DNA of 63,456 nt, filler included, from Collodictyon triciliatum (lineage: Eukaryota): NCBI GenBank assembly GCA_043381765.1. It is 12 parts of 12 records of this genome, joined end to end, with 100 filler letters (N's around TTAATTAATTAA, not from the genome) between each part and the next. Parts side by side here need not be neighbours in the genome. Positions count along the whole stretch, not along the records: positions 1 to 3,862 come from JBHJMP010005058.1; 11 more parts are not named here. The stretch is one strand, 5' to 3'. Below the pieces are notes generated by a model that saw only the letters and a list, made by a program, of their open reading frames with translations, was not told where the DNA came from and ran no database searches. Both the position numbers and the translations under genes were made by a program. Of the stretch, positions 345-63,108 are shown in pieces (positions within the stretch are counted from its first letter, which is position 1; the number at the start of each line of letters is the position of its first letter).

Positions 345-3070
345 TTACTCTGCCAACCCGGTGCTTTCCAGCTTCCAGGCGATGGACGTGACATAGCGGT
401 TTTGGCTCTCTGCCTCGTTGATGTAGGAAGTGGGCCATATGTTGCTGCAGTTGTAGCCTTGCGATGAGGCGCGGCCGGTCAGCTGCGACATGACCACGAC
501 AATCTGCTTGTTTTTCGAGGCCATGGACGTGAGACGCAGGCCGCCAGCCCACAAGCCCTTGATTTCGCTGGCCGGGAATGCGCTCCCGTTCTTGATTATC
601 TGCTTGGTGTAGATGTCTGGGCAATCGGACATGACCACGAGCCAGAAGGTGCCGCACACGCCCAGAGACGTGATAAAGTACTTTTGTTGCATGTAGCTCT
701 CCACCCAGATGGTTGGGAAGGCCTCGCTGAAGGTCATCACCTGGTTGGGCAGCGTGTGCTCCACCTTGGAGACCACCACAACCACGCACGAGTTGTGCAC
801 GTGGCCGGATATGCATGTCACCTTGTAGTTTTCTGTCCGCTTCTTGAGAATCCACTGCTCGGCAGATATGGGCGAGGAGCACTTTTTGATCTGTTGTGAT
901 CGGAATTGAGTGTTTGATGACAGGACGCAGTTCCACAGCGTGCTGCCGTCGGGCTCCTGCGAATGCACCAGTGAGGTTATGTAGAGGCCGTGGTCGCTGC
1001 CCCAGCCTTTCTCCTTCAGCCATTCAATCAAAGTGTTGTAGTCACTTTCTCGCGCAAACTTTTGAATCTGCCCTTCATGGCGGCGGGTGACCGTAAACAC
1101 CCACTGTGCCTTGCGAATGTCTTCACCAAGGATTTCCTGGATGCGCTTTGTAGGTGGGATATAGGCGGCAAGTGGAATTTGTGTGTCCATCTTCTTGGAC
1201 ACTTCCATCGCAGATGATGGGCGTGGCATCATCCATTCGTAAATTCCGTCGTTTGGCAAGCTATTCTTTCTCATTCCCTCCTCCATTAATCTGATGCAAT
1301 CGTTGTAACTCGGCTCTTCGTCAAACCTAAGCCCACGGACATACCTGAGAAAACTTTTTTTTCCCACAATTAGTTCAGTAGTGTCGTACAAATTTTGATA
1401 AGGTGTTTGTTTAAAAGCTGTTATATGAAGAACTGCAAGAATTTTTAAAAAAAAACATTGAATAAAACAAAGGATGCAAAATAGATACGTGAACTAAAAA
1501 AATTATTTAATTATTTTTTTCTGTCTAAAATCTAGATTTTCTGGGAATTTTTTCATCTCTTATGTGTAGTGTGCGTGGAATAATATGCGTATATGCTATT
1601 TTTCATTCCTCGTGTTTGTTTTGTATATTTCGTTCATACTTTTCTCATTTTTTCTCTTGTTATAGCATCGTTTGTGTCTCTTGGTCATCATTTCTATATA
1701 TTTTTCATATAAAATAAACTCACTCTTGATATTGAGCAGGCAGACCCCTGCACAAAAGTTCTATGTTGGTCCTCTTCTTGATTTCTTTAACTTTCAGTCT
1801 TTTTTCATTCTTATCTCCGGTTTGATTTTGCCATTCCAACTTCCCACGAAAGAGATAAACCATGCAATAAATGAGAGACTCCAGATCGTCTCTTCGGGAT
1901 AATTCGTGCTCATCATGCACATTAATGCTGCAGTATCTCAGTGTCCCTGTTATTCCACTGCCTCTCTTTTTGATGGGGATATGATTCCCATCTTCCTTGC
2001 GCCACCGCTGGCTCAAACCAAAGTCAACCAGATACAGTACGTTATTTTCAAGGCCACAGCCAATCATGAAGTTCTCTGGCTTGATGTCTGCATGGATGTA
2101 TCCCGTAAGGTGGAGACTGTGAAGGATTCTGATGGCCTGGATGGTCAGTGAGAGAATAGTTTTGACACAAAACTTTTTCTCGGCCGTGGAATCATGAAGA
2201 GTTTGTAGGCTCTGTCCTAATTGGGTCATCACCAAGAAATGATGCCTATCTGTAGATCCTATCAGAACACTTCTGGGGAAACCCGGGCAAGTCTTCACTA
2301 ACTGTATAATTCAGATAATCGAATCAGTTTGTATGCTTGGCGGCATAGCTCGGCATATAACTCATGGGTACTTTGTGCACAGATTTAAATAATTTGATCC
2401 TTTTTTTCCTTTATTCGATTCAAAGTAAATAATTTGATCCTGTTGTCAAAAATTAAGTGCGACTAATTGTTCTTTGTATTTATGTTAATTTTCATTATTC
2501 TCTTCCTGGTTGTTGTTGTTGCTTCTTTTCAATTTGTGTATGCTATGTCAATTTACTTTGTATCGTTTCTGTTTTAATTGTATCTATGTATAACAAATAA
2601 TAATAAAATTGTTCATTTATATGTGTATTATTACTATGATGATGATTATGATGATTATGATTATGATTGTGATTGTGATTATGATTGTGATTGTGATTAT
2701 GATTATGATTATTCCACCCATTTATTTTTTGCTCAAGTGAATCTTTTATCGCATATATATATATATTTCAGTCCATTAAGATTTATCAACAGAAAACAAA
2801 CTTTGTTGGTTTTTCCAAATCCTGAAAAGACTCACAAACCTGCATAATATCGTTTTCTGTCCGCAAGTGGGGCGGCTTTTGCTTCGGATCAGCCTTTTTC
2901 TCTTCAAACTTCACGGCAAAAGCTTCTCCGTCGATCAGTCTCCGTGCAAGCCGCACTTCCCCAAACGATCCTTTCCCAACCGAATGGTATATGAGAAATT
3001 GCTTCGACAGAACCTCGCCTCCAAGCACCTGACCCTCCAGCGTAAGGCTCTTTGATTCTCCGCTTTGCAT
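345..3070 (-). CDS. Casein kinase 1 family kinase with MUT9/MLK(PPK/AEL)-like C-terminal five-repeat domain; exons 3070-2840, 2301-1724, 1353-345
   Basis: Kinase motifs GKGSFG, AVKFE, HADIKPENF, LVDFGLS, GTLRYCSINVH, SRRDDLESL. GT-AG splicing keeps the frame (231+578+1009 nt). The C-terminus has five ~50-aa repeats (GLYITSL, NYKVTCI, KYFITSL, GLRLTSM, NRYVTSI). Confidence 0.9.
2386..2440 (-). mobile_element. Micro-retroposon copy 1 (CTTTGAATCGAATAAAGGA7) with perfect 15-16 bp TSD, in CK1 intron 1
   Basis: taaataatttgatcc at 2386-2400 and 2426-2440 flanks the insert at 2401-2425. The same insert core recurs on other contigs. Confidence 0.75.
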
Positions 3071-7308: not shown

Positions 7309-9387
7309 CTACTTCAAGCCCCCGAGATGTTTCGCGCAGAAGCATTCCAACTCCCTGAGTTCCTCCGGTAGCGTAAAGTTTCCATCTCCTTCCATGTCGT
7401 ACGAATCCCTCAATGCGGAATCTGCGCCTCTTGTGCGCACTCTGCTGCCTCGGGAGCGCGATACTGGCGTGGATGACTTTGACTGCCAAGCACGTTGCCG
7501 ATCGCCCGATTCGCTCGTTTCTTGCCTTTCGCAGGACTTGTGTCTTCTGGTGTCTGGTATTGTTTCGCAGGGCGAGGCGGAAAGGGAAAGGTTGGGATTT
7601 GAGTAAATGATGTGCTGGTGAAACGAGAAGTCTGCACTTGATGCTGTGCCGTATAATGATAAAGTCTACGAAAACTTAATTATTTTTCTTTTTTTGAAGT
7701 GATTTGAAAAATTAATTATATTACTTGTATCTCTGATTGTCTTTTTTTTAAAAAAAATTATTATTATTTTGATTTAGGTTTAGATTTAGGAGAATGTATA
7801 TTGTAGATTATCCATTTCGTGGATGGTGCCATTACCATTGGTTGGAGTCGATAGTTGTGGACGCATTTTTATTGGCTCTGGGGTTTGGGTTCTGGATTTC
7901 GTGTCTTTCCTCGGGGCAGACGGGAAAACTTGCGGGGAGCCGATCTACGAGTTGATTAGACCACATAACTTGAGAATTAGTGAGTAAGAGTATTGGTAGT
8001 CATTTATTCATTAAGCTAATATTCATTATATTTGTGTTTTGTATCCCCTTTGCTTTGAAGCAAGTCATTAGTTTATCTGAAGCAAGATGCAAACAACAAA
8101 CCTTTGGATAGCGCAGTATTTCTTCTGTGCTGTGCGGTCGCTTCAGTTGTTAGAAAAAAAAAAGCTATCATTATGATAAACCCAAAAATAGTATTGTTTA
8201 TTTTTTATCACAAAAAAAAAAGGAGAAAAAGGAGTGATTTGATGGCATTATCTAAATATTGCACAGAAATTCACTCAGAATTCAAAGTTTTGTTCATGCT
8301 AGTGAATGAATATCATCCATGAGAGAAAAGATAGACAGAGAAAAGGAATGGCACAACGTACCTCACTCTCTGTATGCGTGTGAGACGAAGACAGCATCTG
8401 ACTCGAATGGTTTGTCCGGGACGGGCTGAAACTGTCCGACATTGAGTGGGAAATGATGTCCTGGGCCTCCACCCTCCACTTCTCCAGGCGGGCCTCAACA
8501 TCGGGGCTGATTTGAAGCGTGTCTATGTTTCCCTTCTTGAGTCCTTTCTGAATTGTATGCAGTTGCTCGATGCAGTCTTTATGCTGTGTTGGTTTGGACA
8601 GATCAGACGAAGGGAATAACCGGACCGACGGTTTCTGCTGCACTCGGGTTGGGACAGACTTGAAGGAAAACTTCTCGGCCGATTTTTTGCGCGCATCGAG
8701 TGCCTGTTCGAAGGCGTCAATCTCGTGCAGGGTGACTTCGCGCGTCAGCTCGTTGCGCACTTTTTCGTGAAGAATCGTCACTTCCACAGGATTGAGGGTT
8801 CCTGTTTTCACCACATGCATCGTCCTCCAGAGCGGAGCCTTGGAGTTGCGGATGAACTCTGGAAGTGGGTCAACACGCGCCAGATAAATGTACTTTGTAA
8901 ATAAATGAATAATGCATCGATTTAATCCCATGATTGATTGGACGGATATAAGGATTCATTATAGGAGAATGATTCATGTTTTTGTTTTAATAATTGATAT
9001 CATAAAACTCTTCTGTCAGTGTTGAGAGAGATAATGAGTCCTTGGAGATTAAAGAATATGCATCATATCAGGATGTTTTACAAACACCTAGGAGGCTCGC
9101 ATAGATGATGAAAAGAAAAAAATAAAGCATATCATCGTGTTGGAAGAAATGGGTACACAAGAGAAAAGAATGTATCAAATACTAAAGAAATCACCTCCGA
9201 TTAAGCGCCGATGATTTGGGACTTCCTTGACATCAGTGCGATAGTGTGGGACGGCCTCCGGCTCCGAATGGCCCTCAGCCAGAAACACAGGTTTTTTGGA
9301 TTCGTATAGCCCGGCAGTTTCGGGAGTCACAAACGGGATTCCCAGGTCCGTGGGGAACACAAACGAGGTCGCACGATTTCGGTTCAT
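7309..9387 (-). CDS. Hypothetical multi-exon protein, low complexity
   Basis: Coding-like exons at about 9387-9190, 8880-8360, 7970-7810 and 7650-7309 with GT-AG flanks. Ends ...LPEELRELECFCAKHLGGLK*. No family recognised. Confidence 0.5.
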
Positions 9388-32727: not shown

Positions 32728-35700
32728 TTACTTTGCATTGGGCTCATTTTCTAGTTCATGTGCAGTAAATATATTCCGACGAAATTCAGCTGTAGACACG
32801 AAAATGCAATCATTAAATCTATCCAGATTATCGCTTATTCCAACAGAATAACTCTCTGTTGTGATGTTGTTCTCTGCCCAGCTAGAAGCATAGCCTAAAA
32901 AGACAAGAAAGTTTAGCATAATTTTAAATAAAGTTGACATGATGGTTAAAGTCCTCGTAATTACCACAAGATGAAGGAAAGGATGATTTTTTTTTGGAAT
33001 ATATGGGAATTATAAAATGAGGTATGGGTCAATACCTGTTTGAAATGCAAGGTCAATGTGAACAGCGGAAAAGTATTTTTTTGGTTCACCACATATGATC
33101 GATCTCGACAAAATTGAGTGCAGATTATCCAGCTGGAGCAAGGCGGCATTTTGAATATAGTTATTAACACCATTATTCAATCTCAATGGTTCTCTTCCAT
33201 GAAATTCGATCAGTTGAGTCAGGACTATAAACATGTTCTACACAAAATTAAAGAATTTTTTTTATTTACAAATAAAAATTAAGCAAAACATAATAATAAT
33301 GTGAAAGTGTATATTTTGTATATTCTTAAAGGGATTTACACAGATGAAGATACACATAATTTATTGTTTCTTTTTTTATAAAGGATCACAAGAGGAATTT
33401 TAACTTACCACCAGCACGGGGCGTGGGAGCTGAATATTATTCATAACGAGTTGAATTGAAGAATTTGAAAACGAGTTTGCCAGATAAATGATTTTTTCAA
33501 GTATAGTATGATTCATAGCAGAAGAGCTCAACACACACTTTACCATAATAGAGGAAACTGATAACAAGGAATCGGAAGAATGATATATCCTATCCCATGA
33601 CAAAATTGTGTCATTTAATATTGAAAATATTATCTCTCTCTTTCGAGGATTGGTACTTTCAATCAGATTCTGTCTATTTGACCGAGTGAACCGTAAGGAT
33701 GACTGACCGGCTATAAGAAAAATAAAAATGTTCTTACTGATATAATTATTAAAAAAGAGAAAATATTTGATCAGAATCAAGTCCTTGTTTAAATTGAATA
33801 AAGTATTAAAAAAATGGCGAATTATAATAAATAATAAATGAACGTATTGATGACCTTATTAATGGATAAATTAGTGAATTAATGAACAAATTAACGAATA
33901 AATGAACAAATTAATCAATACCTAAGCAATCTAGTATAATACTTGCCAGAGATAGTGTTCTATAGTAATCACCAGACATCAAAGCTTTTGAGTATTCGCC
34001 TTTGTAAACGATATTGATCGCTTCTGATATGTTCCTGGGTGATTCAACCGTAACATTGACTGACACTCTCCTACTCGCACCGTACCGGTTGGATATATCA
34101 ACAAATATAGTATGGTTTCCAGGGGGCAATATTGTTGATACAGAATATAGATTCGATTGATAAATAATTGTTTCTGTGTCCGAATGAGCACCTTTGAACA
34201 AGAATGTAAATACGAGTGGATAATTTTCTGGCAAGTCTTCCCAATAAATAGCATTTAGTTGGAATGAAGTAGAAAGGGCCTCTCCAAACACAGGGGAAAC
34301 ATTAAAAATACCTCCAGAAGGAGGAGTATTAGGAGAGAATGAAACGGAGGAAAAGCCATTATATGAACCATTAGATACTATAAGTCCTATATCATAAACT
34401 TGCCCATCAACTATTGAATATGGTAGGACCGTTACAGCTGTTTTTTCCTTCTTAAGAACTGTATCCAGCTTCATATTTAACATTCTGTTAGACTCTGTCC
34501 AATTGTAACTTAATGATGCCGATATTACATTTCTTAGCCTAATCTTATCTTTTGTCGGCAAATATCCATCAATGGGTAAGGGACTCCCTCTGACGATTTG
34601 ATTAGCTTCTACTCCAAGCGAAAGAGACACAGGAATAGGATTTCCTTCCATGTAAGTTAACCAACAATCGGCAACTGCTTTTCTATTTCCCTTTATTGCA
34701 TTCAGATAAAATATATATGTTCCAACAGGGAAGCTTCGGGGATTTATAGTTATTATTTTTCCAGTCCGTTTAAAACTAGAACAAGGGTCTTTGGGATCCA
34801 GAGTTTTTGATGAGCATGTCCAGTAATATGAAAAATCTCCAAAGAGAGAATCGTAGTCTATACCATTACCAATTAGTTGTACAGACTCAGAAACTCCGGC
34901 CCATCTATTAGCTCCTAAAATTTGAACAAAAATCTGGGATGGCAAAACGTTCAAATCAATAGAATAATAATTAGAACCAGTGTTACCACTCATTGATGCC
35001 AAAACCATCAAGGTAATTCTTTCTCCAATATAATTGCGAAGTGCACCAGGTGGAACGATCAATTTACTTTGTAATAGGAGACTGTCTTTTAGTCCGACAG
35101 AGACCTCGGCTGAGGAGCCATACTTGTAAAGTTTCCAGAGGATAGAAACAAAAGTAGAGTTTGTATTCACGCATGAACCAACTAGGGTGGTAGATGTGAA
35201 CGAGTATGCTAAATCAGCCCTGATATCCATGTATTGAGATCCGGATATTGTCACAGAGGGAGCCAATCCAATACCTCTGAAAGATGTAACGTTCTTGCTG
35301 CTTGATAGAGAAAGGAAATTAGTTACCGTCAGTTCGAAGGTAAATTTACTATTTTCGGGTAAAAGTTGGAAAATGGCATCATTCGGACTGAAAGATATTT
35401 TAGCTTCTGTGAAAAGGGATGCATATGTTTGGATGATCATGAAATCTATATTTGATAATTTCTGGCTTGAGTCATAGAACTTCCACAAGAATTTTAAGGT
35501 TTGAGAACCCCCGTAAGAGTTAGAGCCATCCATAACAAGGGGAGTGCAGTCACCAAAGCTGTTTCCAGTGGCAACTACGGTTGGATAGACATAAGCCTTA
35601 TAGCCTAATGATACAGTCCCTGAAGACGCCGGATAAAGTATTCTGCTTTCGTACCAAGTACCAGAGGATATGATATAATTTTCAGATATGGTTATATCAC

Positions 35701-38083
35701 TACCGATCGGGGGATAAAATTGATGATAGACTACTAAAGTTTTTCTATTTGCCCAGCTACACGTAGAGAGTGATCCAACTAGATGGAAGGTCTCTTTGCT
35801 GAGTAGATTCTGACATGAGTTATCATTTATTGCAGAACCCCAGTACCCCATATTTGTTTCTTTGTCAAACACAATTTCAATCGAATTAAGATTATCTGAA
35901 TAGTTCGCGCTCATTATAAATGGAGGATAAGAAGTATAAGCATATTTTGTGACTGAAATCAAGAACTGCTGATTATTTGGACTAAATTGTACGGTTACAA
36001 AAGCGGGAACCGTTGATGGGGGAACTCGACAGAGAGCAGACGATGAACTGACGATTATTGGTTTCGACGGCGATGGTATTGTTCCGAATATACAAGCCGC
36101 ATCCCGAACATATCCAATCTGAAAACCTTTACCAGATATAGTAGCAAAAGAACTGCCAGCCAAAGGCCCCGAGGTTGGTGCAATGGATTCGAGAGACATG
36201 TCAGAAAATACAAAGTTTTCGGGACCGATAGTCCTCGATCCAGACACTGCAGTGATTTGAACAATGCCGGGCTGATATGAGGATGCGGGTGGAATGTCAA
36301 AAGAGTAGAAGCCATTTCCCAGCGATTTCGTAGGAAATGTACGAGGAGGATTCATTCCAAATCTCACTCTTGAGAAATCATCACGCAAAAAACTACTGGA
36401 AAATACAACATTCGTTTTCTCTGATATTATTGCTATGTTTGGCGTTATGGATGTAAATCCAGAGCTGTAGAATTCAAAATGGAATTGTCTGGTTTGCTCA
36501 TTTTTTTGTCCTCCGACAATAACAGAAACAATCAAAGAAGATCCTTCGGTCTTTCTCAATGCAGGATAACATATCATTTCAGAGTCTTTGATCCATATAG
36601 TCGAATCACAAGGAACAGAATCTATGTAAACAATTTGATCTCCTTGCGAAGGCCCAAAATTTAGACCAGTCAGGGTTATGGGTATAGAGCCTAAAAGACT
36701 TGCTTTAGCTGGGAAAACTTCTTTGATTAGCAAAGGGGGATCATAAGACCAAATTAAGGTGTTTGATATAATGTTATTAATTGAAATAAAAACCGGAATA
36801 TTTTTTCCGACACCTGGGCAACTGTAAAAGGTAATATTTGTTGGCCAAACCTTTATTGGGGTTATTTGACAGCTCCCAAAGTTAACCAATATTTTAACAA
36901 ATGAATCGTTTCTGCCCAAGAAATCTCCAAATATAGATATTTCCTGGCCTCCTACGGCTGGACCTGAGTTTGGTGATATTGTGGTTAATATTGGAGGAGA
37001 ATAGCTCCAAAGTCTGTTGCTAGCGGTACTTGAAGAGCCACACACGACTTTGATATCGAGATTGGAGCCTCTTCCAGGCGGCGGAGAGACAATAATTACG
37101 GATGGACTATTATATGACATGACAACGGAGAGAACAGAGTTAAACATAACTTTGGGGCTTGAACAAAAAGCGGGGCCTCGTATGGTGACTATCGGATAGC
37201 CTCCTCCAACTTGGCCAACAGAAGGAGATATAGATGCAATTACTGGAATAAAGGTCCAATTAGTGCTAACACTTTGTCCTCCGACCTCTAAAACTAATTT
37301 CTGAAGAGAAACCACATCTTTACCCGAAGGGGTTTCAAAAATTATCAATGGATTGGATCGGAATATTATGGACGATCTGGGAACAAGATCTTCAGCGATT
37401 GATATTGAGAAATCCCCCAAGATCGAATAAGACCCGAAATTTGAGCCTGCGATAGTAACCAAGGTTTTTCCGGTAACAGGCCCACTCGTAGGAGATAACA
37501 TTAAAATTTCTGGACCAAAAAAGCTAAAAGTGACATTTGGATTAGAAATTGTGCAGTTGAAAAGCGTGGCTTTTACTAAAAGTTTTTGTCCAACACCATT
37601 AGGGACCGTAAAATAGGCTAAATGATCGGATTCTACAAATAATTGTGAAGAATAGAGTGAGCCTAAATGTACTTGGAAGAATTTAGAGCTGATCCCTTGG
37701 AGGTTACTACCATATACATATACACGTCGTTTCAAAGCAATGGACTCCACTGGGAGGTGGTCTGGAACAATCTTTTTAATGGAAGGTTCAATATATGTGA
37801 ACGTAGCGTTTGACTTACAGTTCATCCCAGAGTAACAAACATACACATAATATGAACCGGATTGCCCTTGCCCAGACACACAAAATGCACTCGTATCATT
37901 AAAGAAACCAAACTTAAAACATGGAAAACCTCCAATGTAAATATATAAATTCCCTGTTTTTTTCTGAAAATTTGTTCCAAATATAGTGATATATGTACCT
38001 CCACCAACACCGCCAGCGATGTTATCAATGTGCGATACAAAAGATAAATTTTCAAACTCCGACTGAGACGGGAAGCGAGACAA
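32728..38083 (-). CDS. Large cell-surface protein: tandem IPT/TIG domains + REJ/PKD module (polycystin-like), partial at both ends
   Basis: 4.1-kb exon with repeated I.sisP.sGp..Gg..itI.G.nF (TIG) units and the REJ motif [24 protein letters not shown]....WED...YPL.F.F. Further exons run down to about 32728. Confidence 0.85.
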
Positions 38084-38084
38084 A

Positions 38085-38262
38085 GATTGGGATTGGGATT
38101 GAGATTGAGATTGGGACTGGGACTGAGATTGAAACTGAGACTGAGACTGAGACTGAGACTGAGACTGAGACTGAGACTGAGACTGAGACTGAGACTGAGA
38201 CTGAGACTGAGACTGAGACTGAGACTGAGACTGCGACTGGGATTGAGACTGAGACTGGGATT
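38085..38262. repeat. (GAGACT)n microsatellite at contig end
   Basis: Seen directly in the sequence. Confidence 0.9.
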
Positions 38263-38692: not shown

Positions 38693-41073
38693 ATGACACA
38701 GTATCTCGCATTTGCCTCTGGTAAATGCGTTTGGACTCTGGATCCGTTGCAAAATACTGTGCTGTCCTCCTTCCAGCCGATTGGCAATGTTGTTCGATCA
38801 GTTGTTTGGAATCATAATAGTAAGTTTTCTTTGTTCCATGGAAGACTAGCCGAGCATGCTCTCGATTACACTTACCTTTGTTCATTCGAAGTAATCTTGG
38901 TCATGCTTTATTTATAAATACTCCTATATACTACTTCATCCTCAAAGTGTCCCCATCACATTGAATTAAAATCTTGTTAGTTTGTGAACATTCATACTTA
39001 ATCTCTATATTACAATAAGGTCAAGTATTGGCCTCTACTGGCGATAGCGGAATCATCTCACTAAATCTTCCAAACGGAAGCCCAGTTGACGCTCTTCCTC
39101 ACGAACAAGAAAGACCTCCCAGCTTGGTCAGAGTCTTTCCTATACCAGATATATAGTTTTTTTTTTGTTCATACTAAGCTGATAAAACCAAAATGAAAAA
39201 TTAAGTCATGGACGCCTTTATTTAAATTACTTCTATCTAAACGCATATATTTCCATTAAGGCATAATTTTATCGGCAACTTCCTCACATTCATCATTTCT
39301 ATCTTGTTTTTCTTACTTTGAAACCGATCAGGATGAGGAAATGAAATGCATAGGATTTACTAGCACGTCAAGACATATGTTTACTGGAGGAAGCTTGCGA
39401 GTTATCAAGTTATGGGATTTGAAAAAGAGATCTCTACAAAAAATCTTAAAGGTAAAAACCTTGGTCCTCCAAGATAATAGGAACAATTTTCCCCCTTTAT
39501 TCGGTTGAAGTTATCAGGAAAGAATCTTGGTTTTGTTTCTTTGTTTCTTTGTTTTCTTTGTTTTCTTTGTTTTCTTTGTTTTCTTTGTTTTCTTTGTTTT
39601 CTTTGTTTTCTTTGTTTTCTTTGTTTTCTTTGTTTTCTTTGTTTCTTTGTTTCTTTGTTTCTTTGTTTCTTTGTCAAAATTTTCATTTCTTATTGCACTG
39701 TAATACAAAATACTATAATCGTCTTCATTTATACATGAAATTGTGACTTCATAAAAAAATTCTATACCTCCTATTACGATTTATCAGGGACATACCAATA
39801 CAATTACATGCGCAAGTATGTGTCAAGGAGACTCTGGTATTGCATCTGGTTCAGCATCTGGAGAGACAATAATACACCACTTTGACGAGCACTGGTCAGA
39901 AACACGTTTGAATCCAAAAGACTTTCAGGTTTATTCTCTTTCAAGAGATATTAGGAACTTTTACAGTCATGAAATTTATCACCAAGCTATTTAAATATAT
40001 AATTATTTTATTTTTGCTATGAACTCATACTTTGTTTGACTCGCCTTTAATAGAGGTCACCAGTGACAAGTCTGCAAGCTTCTCCTTTTAACCGAAGCCA
40101 AGTCGTGAATTCCTGTGAGGATGGTAGCATAAGGTTGTGGGATATCACATCTCGCACAATCGAATGCGAGTTTCCCTTGCAACATAACTCTATCGCAACC
40201 GCCGTTGCTTTTTCAACTTTGAATCCGATATTTCTTGCCAGCGTTGGTCTCGATCGGAAGATTGTTTTTTATGATTTGAGCGCACAAAAGTATGTATATC
40301 ATAATATTGAGCGCATTCAATTCAGAAACTATTGCTTGGGCAAGATGGGCTAAATCAAAACAGAATTGCTATTAAAAACTATATGCAACAAGCTGCTTTA
40401 TTTTGCTATCATTTGTTGATATTCATTCTCGATAAAAATGCCAACTACTAAGAAATTATTATTCACATAAAATCACTCATAATGCCAGGGTTATTCAGTC
40501 AATCATCTTGAACGAACCCACGTGTTCATTATGCTTCAAAGATGACGGTATCACGATAGCTCTCGGTTCTGTTGATGGTATAGTACATAACCATGGAAAT
40601 ATGAAAGAAATAAATTTATCTTTCTCGATATTTACGTACCTCAGCAGGAAAGGTTACACTCACTTTATGTCTCAACTATTATCTCTCATTTAGGAAAAAT
40701 TTACACTTACGATTTGCGGAATACTGTTCAATATTTATCTACTTTTGACTCCGCCACAAGGACGCACATACCGTCTTTGTCCTTCCAATCTTTTAAGATT
40801 GCAAACAAAGTAATTTTCATATATTTGTGTGATTTATTATTTTATTTTGTGCATGGGAATAGATTTGCGATAATATTTTTTTATCGCTACATCTAACTCT
40901 ACCACATAGAAACAAAGTTCTGGTGTTTCGTCTACTTCTCACTCGACACCAAATGTAAGTATGTCCAGTTCCTCTATTGACAAAATGAAACCATCGCCAC
41001 TGGAGAGCACAAGATATAGTAGTGAACGAGGCGTAATTATTCTATAGATGATCAAATATATATTCCCTTTTTT

Positions 41074-61554: not shown

Positions 61555-63108
61555 CTTCCAACAAGAGTCTAACCCTTCGACCTTATCAAACCGGCCTGGT
61601 AGTGCGAAGCAGAGAAGTTCTCAATCAGCAAAGAGCTTTGGTACAGCCCCCACCCCGGCAGGTGGATTTGGCGCTCCAATGAGCGGTCCAGTTATCTTAT
61701 CGCTGGTTGAATGCACCGTATGTGGTCGCCGTTTTAATGCAGATCGCATCGAAAAACATATATCAGCATGTAAAAAAGCTCAAAAGCCCCGCAAAAAATT
61801 TGACTCCTCAGCCGCTCGTGCGCGTGATACTGAATTAGAGGGATTTCGACCAAAGGTTACTTCCTTTGTATAATCTACGTGTTATCTATGACGAATTTTT
61901 CTCAATATATCATTAAATGTTCGATATTCTTGATAATCAAGCCTTAATCATATACTTTGAATCGAATAAAGGAGAAAAAAGGCCTTAAGCATAAAATCTA
62001 TCCTCGTGACTTTTTATCATAATTTTAAATCCGATTCCATTTTGAACGAATTGATTTATGCCTACATGCTAATTTTTAAAAATATGAAATATACAGATTG
62101 CAGTAGGTGATAGCCACGTTAAATATACTCATTCATGTATCATTAATTTTTATTTATTCCTCGGGCCAGAAAATCTCTACAGTAGGCCCGCAACAACGAG
62201 GCGGTGCTCCGATGAAGTCCACCTCTGGTAAAGGGAGTAACTGGAGAAGGCAGCATGAGGAGTTTATTCGAGCCGTTAGAGATGCTAAAAAGGTCTCTCA
62301 GTACGTCGCAGCTGGAGGGAACTTAGCAGACTTACCTCCTCCGCCACCTTCCGAAAATCCGGACTATGTACAGTGTCCCCACTGTAGAAGACGATTCAAT
62401 GAAAGTAAATATACAAGTCACATAATATTTTCAGTTTCAGTTTCACTATGCCTATTATTATTAATATGATTATGATTATGATTATGATTATGATTATGAT
62501 TATGATTATGATTATGATTATGATTATTATTCCATGAACTCATGCCAATGCTTCGCTATTTGTAGTCCTTTTACCTGACTTTTTTTCATGACTAGCCCAG
62601 AAGGCGCATACCTAATTGAAATACTTGTCCTAACCCAACCAATATCTCACCCGAAGCCGCCGCCAGTCGACACATCCCATCATGTGCGACCACAATCAAC
62701 AAACCCAAACCGCCGCCTCACATGCGAAACCCATCCCCGCAAAGAAAAGCAGCAGAGCCGCAACGCACTCCGCAACCGGAGCCGTTGAACCGTGCTCGTG
62801 GCTCAAACAGCCCCGCAACGCGCCGGGAAACGCAACGCCCCGACCAAAAGTCAGACAACTATCGCAGTACCGGCTTGGGTGGTCGGCCGGCGAGTGGGCC
62901 TCAAGCCAGCGGGTTTCTTCCCAGCAGCAACCCTGCGAGCGGCCAAAGGCAGCCGAGTGTCGAGAGAAGAGGCCCGAACGCTCATGCCTCGTCGGCTTCT
63001 GTAACGAGCCCGCCTCCAGCCCCTGCAAAGTTTTGTTTCAACTGCGGCCTTCGATACCAGACGGCGAACGAGAGATTCTGTTGCCAGTGCGGTTGTCGGA
63101 GGATGTAA
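61555..63108 (+). CDS. ZC2HC1A: Zinc finger C2HC domain protein 1A-like, 5' partial
   Basis: CTVCGRRFNADRIEKHISAC, NWRRQHEEFIRAVR, PPPPSENPDYVQCPHCRRRFNETAASRHIPSC, and C-terminal KFCFNCG...RFCCQCGCRRM*. Confidence 0.9.
61940..61995 (+). mobile_element. Micro-retroposon copy 3 (CTTTGAATCGAATAAAGGAGAAAAAA) with decayed 15 bp TSD, in a ZC2HC1A intron
   Basis: Insert at 61955-61980. Flanks agccttaatcatata and ggccttaagcataaa are 12/15 identical. Confidence 0.65.

Follow-up and report, generated by a model that had tools for sequence, protein, structure and literature searches.

Very short poly(A)-tailed insertions with target-site duplications in Collodictyon triciliatum, probably the severely 5'-truncated ends of a LINE

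An intron of a protein kinase gene of Collodictyon triciliatum (assembly GCA_043381765.1) contains a tiny insert that lies between two perfect direct repeats and carries a run of A at one end. This raises the question of which kind of retroposition could give rise to so short a unit. We addressed it in a stretch of 63,456 nt, hereafter the window, which is made up of 12 contigs joined by N44-TTAATTAATTAA-N44 linkers. The original prediction had interpreted the insert as a product of target-primed reverse transcription (TPRT), and had left the choice between a self-standing micro-retroposon and a LINE whose reverse transcription routinely stops after a few nucleotides. No sequencing run that shares sequence with the window exceeded a share of 0.20, reached by one presumed to be RNA; freshwater and subsurface metagenomes stood at 0.06-0.08, values from which no habitat is deduced.

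Anatomy of the insertions in the window

The recurrent unit is the motif (CTT)TGAATCGAATAAAGG followed by A6-8, of which the window holds three clean copies, each enclosed by its own flanking duplication (Table 1). These duplications span 14-17 bp (16 nt in copy 1, 17 nt in copy 2 and about 14-16 nt in copy 3) and are all different in sequence; two of the three pairs are perfect, and the third, formed by the flanks AGCCTTAATCATATA and GGCCTTAAGCATAAA, agrees at 12 of 14 positions over GCCTTAA.CATA.A. In all three copies the duplications sit at the exact borders of the element, and the A6-8 tail, found on one side only, directly abuts the 3' duplication. Tails of this kind adjoining duplications that differ from copy to copy support the earlier interpretation as TPRT products with long, variable target-site duplications (TSDs). 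The statements that the core recurs on unrelated contigs, and that every clear copy has a duplication of its own, are likewise borne out, given that the window consists of 12 joined contigs and that no two of the duplications are alike.

Table 1. Coordinates of the insertions and of their flanking duplications in the window (3' and 5' refer to the orientation of the element)
Feature	Position	Strand	Sequence and remarks
Copy 1, 3' target-site duplication	2386..2401	-	AGGATCAAATTATTTA on the minus strand; 16-nt exact repeat with 2426-2441
Copy 1, insert	2402..2425	-	24 nt; CTTTGAATCGAATAAAGG + A6 (A7 if the ambiguous A joins the tail)
Copy 1, 5' target-site duplication	2426..2441	-	exact repeat
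Copy 2, 3' target-site duplication	12417..12433	-	ATCATTCACTTACATCT on the minus strand; 17-nt exact repeat with 12454-12470
Copy 2, insert	12434..12453	-	20 nt; (T)GAATCGAATAAAGG + A6
Copy 2, 5' target-site duplication	12454..12470	-	exact repeat
Copy 3, 5' target-site duplication, decayed	61940..61954	+	AGCCTTAATCATATA; 12/14 with 61982-61995 at the exact element borders
Copy 3, insert	61955..61980	+	CTTTGAATCGAATAAAGG (core 61955-61972) + tail AGAAAAAA
Copy 3, 3' target-site duplication, decayed	61981..61995	+	GGCCTTAAGCATAAA
Old copy, probable	18970..18989	-	TGAATCGTATAAAAG + A5; 2 mismatches in 15; flanking duplication not resolvable
Old copy, probable	14546..14573	-	CACTCTGAGTTGAATAGAGG + A8; matches the final 20 nt of the L004 3'UTR at 16/20 positions
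Doubtful copy	39487..39510	-	exact 10-mer CGAATAAAGG only; GGGAAAA "tail"

Copy 1 was originally described as an insert between perfect repeats in intron 1 of a CK1 gene, with a characteristic reading on the minus strand. The perfect repeats (plus strand, 2386-2441: TAAATAATTTGATCCT, 16 nt, exact) and the minus-strand reading, CTTTGAATCGAATAAAGG + A6-7 within a 24-nt insert, are both confirmed. The placement is right in substance: the host is a CK1-like kinase/DUF7477 gene, and the insert lies in its sense orientation within a GT..AG intron of 538 nt (2839-2302, minus strand) that separates the first aligned coding exon from the second. A word-index protein search with this gene recovered only two near matches, both EukProt transcriptome proteins (58% and 51% identity), and in the 'longer' length class it gave no match for the kinase tail. 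The copies scatter AATAAA signals, one of which is thus sense-oriented within the intron of the kinase gene.

Both the motif and the direct repeats around it are commoner than in shuffled sequence: 1) the 14-mer has three exact matches in the window and six with up to 2 mismatches, against 0.90 expected, and six or more were seen in none of 100 shuffles. 2) Exact 15/15 direct repeats separated by 4-80 nt occur twice, both times flanking the motif, and were absent from each of 30 block-shuffled controls. 3) Five hits are obtained for the final 15 nt of the core, with up to 3 mismatches allowed and an A-rich tail required behind them; 60 shuffles gave 0.12 on average and never more than 1. Since they are among these five hits, 18975-18989 and 14554-14568 are probable old copies, and the intervals 18970-18989 and 14546-14573 likely represent older insertions of the same kind. 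The 5' end of the latter lies at least 2 nt beyond the usual endpoint. A possible 10-nt duplication (9/10) is found about 47 nt upstream of it, the intervening stretch not being demonstrably LINE-like: its similarity to the 3'UTR of the LINE fragment L004, described below, is not significant (4178 of 5000 shuffles score at least as high as the real sequence). Of the two decayed copies proposed earlier, the one at 18971 is hence upheld by the test of core plus A-tail, and the one at 39487 is not, as it consists of a 10-mer only, with no convincing flanking repeat. The sole repeat surrounding 39487 is a 12/15 pair, a threshold at which the window has 80 pairs and shuffles have 62, and this match may be due to chance. 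A further site at 34690 is doubtful as a copy of the motif.

A LINE that ends in the motif

The source of the motif is indicated by L004, a metagenome contig from outside the window. Its minus strand carries a 5'-open ORF with a match to zf-RVT (E 1.5e-7, 32.4 bits against a cut-off of 27.5), which after one frameshift continues to a stop codon at L004:205-207. The 3'UTR that follows measures about 95 nt and ends in A + CTTTGAATCGAATAAAGG + A10, with AT-rich flanking sequence beyond. Copy 1 is 100% identical to this 3' end over 26 nt and copy 2 over 22 nt, such that the window inserts are colinear with the 3' terminus of a reverse transcriptase (RT)-encoding element. L004 is thus predicted to encode the C-terminus of a LINE ORF2, with a 3'UTR ending in the same 18-mer as the window copies, followed by A10.

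A phmmer search of 1.84 billion representatives yielded 14 matches at E<=1e-3. Four of them (P0011-P0014) are long proteins of 1226-1275 aa, 29-38% identical to the C-terminal query over the matched stretches; all four contain Exo_endo_phos and RVT_1, and three of the four zf-RVT, below its curated cut-off. In L004 and in the related fragments P0003 and P0017 the zf-RVT part alone is seen, and the order endonuclease-RVT_1-zf-RVT is found only in the remote relatives P0011-P0014. The LINE family is therefore undescribed, its nearest full-length relatives being those with 29-38% identity over the stretches matched to the C-terminal query. No related locus was detected with the L004 ORF in the genome-contig or viral-contig collections, nor did a word-index protein search in the 'longer' length class return a match for it.

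The claim that the window contains no longer version of the insert holds for LINE protein, for LINE 3'UTR DNA and for poly(A)+TSD insertions up to 2 kb. Pfam, applied to 135 of the 139 window ORFs of at least 90 aa (the remaining four overlap a TIG/REJ ORF), detected no RT or endonuclease. Beyond the short inserts the window shows no DNA similarity to the LINE 3'UTR, and these inserts are also its only poly(A)+TSD structures within 2 kb, with two counted in the real orientation against 1+1 in the mirrored controls. With neither LINE protein nor 3'UTR similarity in the window, a parent LINE in the genome of Collodictyon itself is one that we infer from the sequence of the metagenomic element.

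Exact matches to the motif were found in 48 stretches outside the window, none of which has flanking duplications (44 evaluated by script, 4 by eye). A metagenome scan with a 20-mer gave 20 loci comprising about 13 distinct sequences, the sole relevant one being L004; a genome-contig scan with a 19-mer gave 24 prokaryotic chance matches, and a viral-contig scan four more. Apart from L004, these matches are taken as chance occurrences in unrelated or prokaryotic and viral contigs. A 20-mer spanning the -19 boundary of L004 had no match in the genome-contig collection.

A LINE fragment from another collection, P0015, encoded on a contig of 561 nt, provides a comparison of a filled with an empty site. 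It displays an insertion of 14 residues, in the form EREIN-IFFSFIQFK-EREIN, at a point where L004, P0003 and P0017 have a single EREIN or EREIH. The antisense of copy 1 translates to FFSFIRFK, which matches the inserted segment at 7 of 8 residues, and the length of 14 codons equals that of 25 nt of element and a duplication of about 17 nt together. At the level of the predicted protein the insertion thus reads as the element in antisense, bordered by duplicated residues, and the three sister copies would show the empty site. The LINE part of P0015 itself begins inside ORF2, and hence is a longer 5'-truncated LINE copy.

Origin of the inserts and the recurrent 5' endpoint

These observations make it probable that the inserts are dead-on-arrival, extremely 5'-truncated 3'-terminal copies of a LINE, i.e. 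of a non-LTR retrotransposon of the poly(A) type with a putative APE endonuclease. We propose that the LINE ribonucleoprotein would nick one DNA strand, and that the freed 3' end, a T in the three window cases, would prime on the poly(A) tail; reverse transcription would then cover only 14-19 nt of the 3'UTR, the second strand would be cut 15-17 bp away, and the short cDNA end would be joined to the upstream end through an overlap of 1 nt. The outcome is an insert of 20-26 nt flanked by TSDs of 15-17 bp. What the sequences show is the anatomy, the LINE parentage of the motif and a comparison with an empty site; the succession of steps, and why synthesis would end so early, are inferred. Each of the four clean 5' junctions (three in the window and P0015) has a 1-nt overlap between the end of the duplication and the parent sequence, and this overlap fits the model of abortive reverse transcription with microhomology end joining put forward for 5'-truncated L1 (PMC2912911, which cites Zingler et al. 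2005 and Gilbert et al. 2005). At all three window sites the last base of the primer strand is T, with no motif resembling the TTTT/AA-type, T-rich/A nick-site consensus described for L1 (PMC11702581), three sites being too few for a consensus. As the LINE-tail copies are without promoter or coding capacity, they cannot propagate.

The template-derived part is 14-19 nt in every young copy, and the 5' endpoint falls at about -18 (+/-1) in three of the four clean copies (copy 1, copy 3 and P0015); by our rough estimate the chance of such a shared endpoint among about 12 possible ones is p about 0.03. Random 5' truncation of a multi-kb element predicts neither three to five stops within about 20 nt in one window nor a shared base. 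The shared endpoint, not expected under random truncation, gives some scope for a template that is itself short and discrete: a cut between -19 and -18 would be made in the LINE RNA, or in an RNA sharing its tail, for instance by guided slicing or another endonuclease, and the RT-bound stub of 18 nt plus poly(A) would be copied in full, with run-off synthesis giving a uniform 5' boundary. In effect this would be a processed micro-template rather than abortive synthesis. The three copies ending near -18 are compatible with it, as is the fact that all five window copies have about 20 nt of template or less, or are not demonstrably longer; and longer truncated copies elsewhere, such as P0015, hint at two classes of length. 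However, the endpoint is not fixed: copy 2, compared with copies 1 and 3, is 3-4 nt shorter at its 5' end, as is the old copy at 18970, and the one at 14546 is longer by at least 2 nt. Nor is there a predicted structure in the tail to set a cut or stop site: the 25-mer folds at 0 kcal/mol and the last 101 nt have a z of 0.11. We regard a pre-cut template as rather unlikely. With the small number of copies in mind, the recurrent endpoint and extreme shortness suggest either that reverse transcription aborts early or that the RNA template is cut beforehand.

The other branch of the original alternative, a genuine non-autonomous micro-retroposon or SINE-like family that has a source gene of its own and has borrowed the LINE tail, appears very improbable. 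Such a family would, as here, be dispersed and share the 3' end of a LINE, and the 3' parts of SINEs usually derive from partner LINEs (PMC7245038). However, the insert consists of 14-19 nt and an A-tail, with every base identical to the LINE tail; it has no head, no A or B box, and no similarity to tRNA, 7SL or 5S, and a copy could not be transcribed on its own. A self-standing unit is thus unsupported, because 18 nt are too short for a promoter and no RNA-gene similarity exists at the sites: the only tRNA gene that Rfam at the gathering threshold and ARAGORN found in the window, at 17740-17812, lies clear of every listed copy. It is the branch of a LINE cut off after 14-19 nt, within the end of a 3'UTR like that of L004, that is better supported.

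Three established classes were considered and rejected. An internal pol III promoter or a tRNA-, 7SL- or 5S-derived head, as in a SINE, is absent from an insert of at most 18 nt plus A-tail; a processed retrocopy of a cellular mRNA does not account for a sequence equal to the end of a LINE 3'UTR, and no host gene in the window ends in the motif; and the asymmetric ends (unique 5', A-tail 3') and variable TSDs of 15-17 nt are not those of a MITE or DNA transposon. An adapter, primer or assembly artefact, or a chance repeat, can be given hardly any credence: in its favour are the brevity of the unit and a draft assembly split into pieces of about 5.6 kb, but no two copies share a flanking duplication, a LINE 3'UTR in an independent contig from a metagenome closes with the same motif, a translated copy lies within the independently assembled P0015, and chance is excluded by the shuffles (14-mer matches, 15-bp repeats and core plus A-tail).

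Implications and relation to known systems

As it stands, the 5'-truncated LINE tails, seen in four to six copies, belong to an ordinary kind of element and are unusual in their length distribution; a very abundant family would be extrapolated from three to five copies in about 62 kb. Much more tentatively, and with considerable doubt, we consider that the dominant LINE product here might be micro-insertions of a 14-19 nt tail plus poly(A), with duplications of 15-17 bp and a preferential end at -18, rather than kb-scale copies. Such a class could originate from an RT that fails at the step from initiation to elongation or, alternatively, from a cut at a fixed site in the LINE RNA, the RT-bound 3' stub then being copied to its end. 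If so, three to five copies per 62 kb would translate into thousands per genome, unseen by repeat finders and seeding AATAAA signals into introns, and the same hidden class of mutation may have passed unnoticed wherever LINE tails lack the complexity by which they could be recognized. A literature search by keywords, which does not prove absence, returned no account of a recurrent class of LINE-tail insertions of about 18 nt.

The cause and manner of 5' truncation of LINEs are still debated. A tail distinctive enough for stubs of 14-19 nt to be recognized could directly report the earliest failures of TPRT and reveal how short cDNAs are joined, as with the overlap at the four junctions here. 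Insertions this small escape repeat annotation, yet they come with a duplication of 15-17 bp of host sequence and place hexamers resembling polyadenylation signals within genes.

Among known systems, SINEs bearing the 3' tail of a partner LINE use that tail for recognition and mobilization in trans, but they have a promoter-bearing head and a body; the window inserts have neither and hence are not members of this class. Another known system is that of 5'-truncated copies of L1 and other LINEs, which are made by TPRT and healed through microhomology or non-homologous end joining. With these the inserts have in common the poly(A) tail, the variable TSD of about 15 bp, truncation on the 5' side, the 1-nt junction overlap, and a 3' end shared with an element predicted to be of the endonuclease-RT-zinc finger type. 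They differ from the usual truncated copies in that only 14-19 nt are template-derived in every young copy, in the recurrent endpoint, and in that no TTTT/AA-type consensus is visible at the three sites. A further parallel is offered by de novo, L1-endonuclease-dependent insertions of only poly(T) or poly(A) in human NF1, for which PMC3219598 raises the possibility that the poly(T) is a severely truncated Alu, L1 or processed pseudogene; like the window inserts, these appear to lie at the extreme end of 5' truncation. The NF1 insertions are isolated events, somatic or germline, to which no source can be assigned, whereas in the window 14-19 nt of unique tail name the source, and several copies are fixed.

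Structure of the inserts

The short inserts in copies 1-3 each lie between their own flanking duplications (see the table) and both the motif and the repeat counts exceed those of shuffled sequence, confirming the feature described in the original prediction. On the minus strand the copy 1 insert reads CTTTGAATCGAATAAAGG followed by A6-7, while 12 of 14 positions are identical between the two flanks of copy 3, which abut the element borders precisely. In this layout one duplication adjoins the A-tail and the other adjoins the unique end, both being 15-17 bp long.

Features of the window
Feature	Position	Strand	Details
Copy 1	2386-2401 and 2426-2441	+	same 16 nt as read on the + strand, 24 nt between; insert on the minus strand
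Copy 2	12417-12433 and 12454-12470		17-nt exact repeat; insert (T)GAATCGAATAAAGG + A6
Copy 3	61955-61972 (core)	+	tail AGAAAAAA
Probable old copy (at 18970)	18975-18989		core + A-rich tail match
Probable old copy (at 14546)	14554-14568		core + A-rich tail match
Doubtful candidates	39487 and 34690
CK1-like kinase fused to DUF7477	345-3060	-
TIG/REJ protein	33914-38260	-	single open frame, at least 1449 codons; six TIG/IPT stretches + REJ domain
tRNA-Glu(CTC) gene	17740-17812	-	sole Rfam or ARAGORN match
GC-rich block	21177-24300		~53% GC over 21-24 kb vs 32-45% elsewhere
Long microsatellites (CAATCAT)n and (ACTGAG)n	26908-27015 and 38134-38262		at contig starts or ends

Across the whole window 6 occurrences of the 14-mer were counted at ≤2 mismatches, where 0.90 would be expected, and 0 of 100 shuffles gave as many. 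Two pairs of perfect 15-bp direct repeats spaced 4-80 nt apart are present, compared with none in each of 30 shuffles, and both flank the LINE-tail motif; chance repeats are excluded by these shuffles. Relaxing the match to 12/15 brings in a high background (80 pairs seen vs 62 in shuffles), and hence the copy 3 duplication counts solely by its exact position at the borders. A window scan for an A-run plus a 13-mer recurring ≤2 kb upstream recovered copies 1 and 2 only, with mirrored controls giving 1+1. A search for the terminal 15 nt of the core (≤3 mismatches) followed by an A-rich tail yielded 5 hits, whereas 60 shuffles averaged 0.12 and never exceeded 1, and the two matches so labeled in the table are therefore probably old copies. 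Of the decayed copies originally proposed, that at 18971 is among these, whereas that at 39487 is doubtful. The tally is four clean copies, including the P0015 protein fragment discussed below, and two probable ones, and the density in the window is 3-5 copies per ~62 kb.

A possible second micro-insertion at 7669-7719 carries, on the minus strand, AATCACTTC + AAAAAAAGAAAA between 15-nt direct repeats matching at 13/15. It bears no relation to the LINE tail in sequence and may be due to chance (15 repeats at 13/15 stringency vs 5.3 in shuffles).

A probable LINE parent

The 135 of 139 window ORFs (≥90 aa) that were scanned contain no RT or endonuclease domain. When public metagenome contigs were scanned once with the 20-mer, 20 loci were returned, comprising ~13 distinct sequences, 12 of which are unrelated and without flanking repeats. 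The thirteenth, L004 (1157 nt), is unlike the other twelve: on its minus strand ACTT directly precedes the match and completes the full A + 18-mer, after which come A10 and AT-rich sequence. Upstream of the 18-mer lies a 5'-open frame of 202 codons with a zf-RVT domain (E 1.5e-7, 32.4 bits, cut-off 27.5), which, in alignment with related fragments, reaches ...ITDFFPVLASPR and a stop at L004:205-207 after one frameshift; the stop position gives a 3'UTR of ~95 nt. The frameshift (L004:549-606, minus strand) lies near ...APND/SARL, where the sister fragments P0003 and P0017 are intact, implying that L004 is either a slightly decayed LINE copy or contains a contig error. An exhaustive phmmer search recovered 14 relatives of the ORF, among them P0003 (98% identical), its cluster mate P0017 (359 aa), five fragments of 59-67% identity and four full-length proteins of 1226-1275 aa, all four with Exo_endo_phos and RVT_1 and three with zf-RVT. 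The zf-RVT frame and the domains of these relatives indicate that L004 represents the 3' terminus of a LINE, probably of the APE type.

The L004 tail is matched without a mismatch by 26 nt of copy 1 and 22 nt of copy 2. Judged by sequence identity, the window's 'micro-element' is the last 18 nt of the L004 LINE plus the A-tail, this LINE, from a metagenome contig, being a putative parent for the window's organism. The inserts are ultra-short LINE tails, and the independent 'micro-retroposon' originally envisaged has to be given up, since they consist of the last nucleotides of a LINE 3'UTR and an A-tail. A SINE is rejected, as the insert lacks both head and promoter and the window's sole RNA-gene match overlaps no copy, as is a host mRNA retrocopy, because the sequence is that of the LINE 3'UTR end. 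A DNA transposon is excluded by the asymmetric ends and the long, variable duplications, and an adapter by the presence of the same sequence in independent assemblies at a biologically coherent position.

Insertion sites and their genomic context

P0015, a 136-aa predicted protein on a 561-nt contig of another collection, aligns to the ORF2 C-terminus with 14 extra residues, reading EREIN-IFFSFIQFK-EREIN-I where L004, P0003 and P0017 have EREIN(V)/EREIH(V). The antisense translation of copy 1 is FFSFIRFK, 7 of its 8 residues matching this insertion, and the length of 14 codons is accounted for by 25 nt from the element and a duplication of ~17 nt. Read from a predicted protein only, the pattern is characteristic of another micro-insertion, lodged in antisense orientation inside a LINE copy; L004, P0003 and P0017 would accordingly represent three sister copies with the site uninterrupted. 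Similarity of P0015 to the LINE begins at ...CSLAQKV, its first 32 residues being unrelated, so that it looks like a 5'-truncated LINE copy of ~0.4-0.55 kb that received the nested micro-insertion later.

For the kinase gene, tblastn with two homologues placed the coding exons at ~3037-2825, 2310-1708 and 1412-363 (minus strand), with splice boundaries at 2840/2839 (...CAG/GTTTGT) and 2302 (...TACAG/). These locate copy 1 inside a 538-nt GT..AG intron, where it lies 84 nt before the acceptor in the same sense as the gene. The intron also harbors an (AATCAT/AATCAC)n microsatellite (2640-2720, minus strand).

The 63,456-base window is not a single locus, its 12 pieces (ten of ~5.6 kb, the first and last cut) being joined by N44-TTAATTAATTAA-N44 linkers, with one additional 408-N gap. 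Its genes are eukaryotic: the kinase with its DUF7477 tail, the TIG/REJ protein, and fragments of PDEase, coatomer-epsilon and WD40 genes. Within the near length class of a 5.8-billion-protein collection (E≤0.001), two EukProt transcriptome proteins, 58% and 51% identical over the tail, were the only kinase relatives found, a paucity that points to a sparsely sampled lineage of microbial eukaryotes. The TIG/REJ frame, which runs past the contig end, resembles a large surface protein of the fibrocystin/polycystin-like type, encoded by a single exon. In the GC-rich block, open frames that are long and overlap one another occupy both strands, accompanied by a weak match to GNAT acetyltransferase and by (CTGTGG)n arrays; the block may be foreign or contaminant-like DNA, or else a repeat region of high GC content. 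The contig-end microsatellites probably explain the assembly breaks.

Proposed mechanism of insertion

In each of the four clean copies, the final base of the duplication at the 5' junction coincides with the next base of the parent (counting back from the LINE A-tail, A at -19 in copies 1 and 3, T at -15 in copy 2 and the base at -18 in P0015). This overlap, the A-tail on one side and the 15-17 bp duplications uphold the earlier reading of target-primed reverse transcription (TPRT). The structure fits early-stopping TPRT, in which synthesis would stop early in the LINE tail and the short cDNA would be joined to the upstream end via minimal microhomology. No secondary structure able to explain the stop is predicted in the LINE tail. 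The priming strand ends in T at 3/3 window sites, a sample too small (n=3) to read an endonuclease preference.

The template part is only 14-19 nt in all young copies, and an endpoint at -18 (±1 from the overlap) is compatible with three of the four clean ones, a coincidence for which we infer, as a rough estimate, p ~0.03. Such sharing might arise if a pre-cut, RT-bound RNA stub were copied to its end; we consider this improbable. A strictly fixed endpoint is disfavored by copy 2 and the copy at 18970, which are 3-4 nt shorter, and by the copy at 14546, which is at least 2 nt longer. Early abortive synthesis is the favored explanation for the short inserts. In P0015 the LINE portion starts within ORF2, showing that longer truncated copies exist elsewhere, so that insert lengths may fall into two classes; the length bias is interesting but thinly sampled.

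Early-stopping TPRT with microhomology joining is the model discussed for 5'-truncated L1 (PMC2912911), and a poly(T)-only insertion, an extreme of the same process, has been read as a severely truncated retroelement (PMC3219598). The ultra-short LINE tails belong to this already known kind of insertion.
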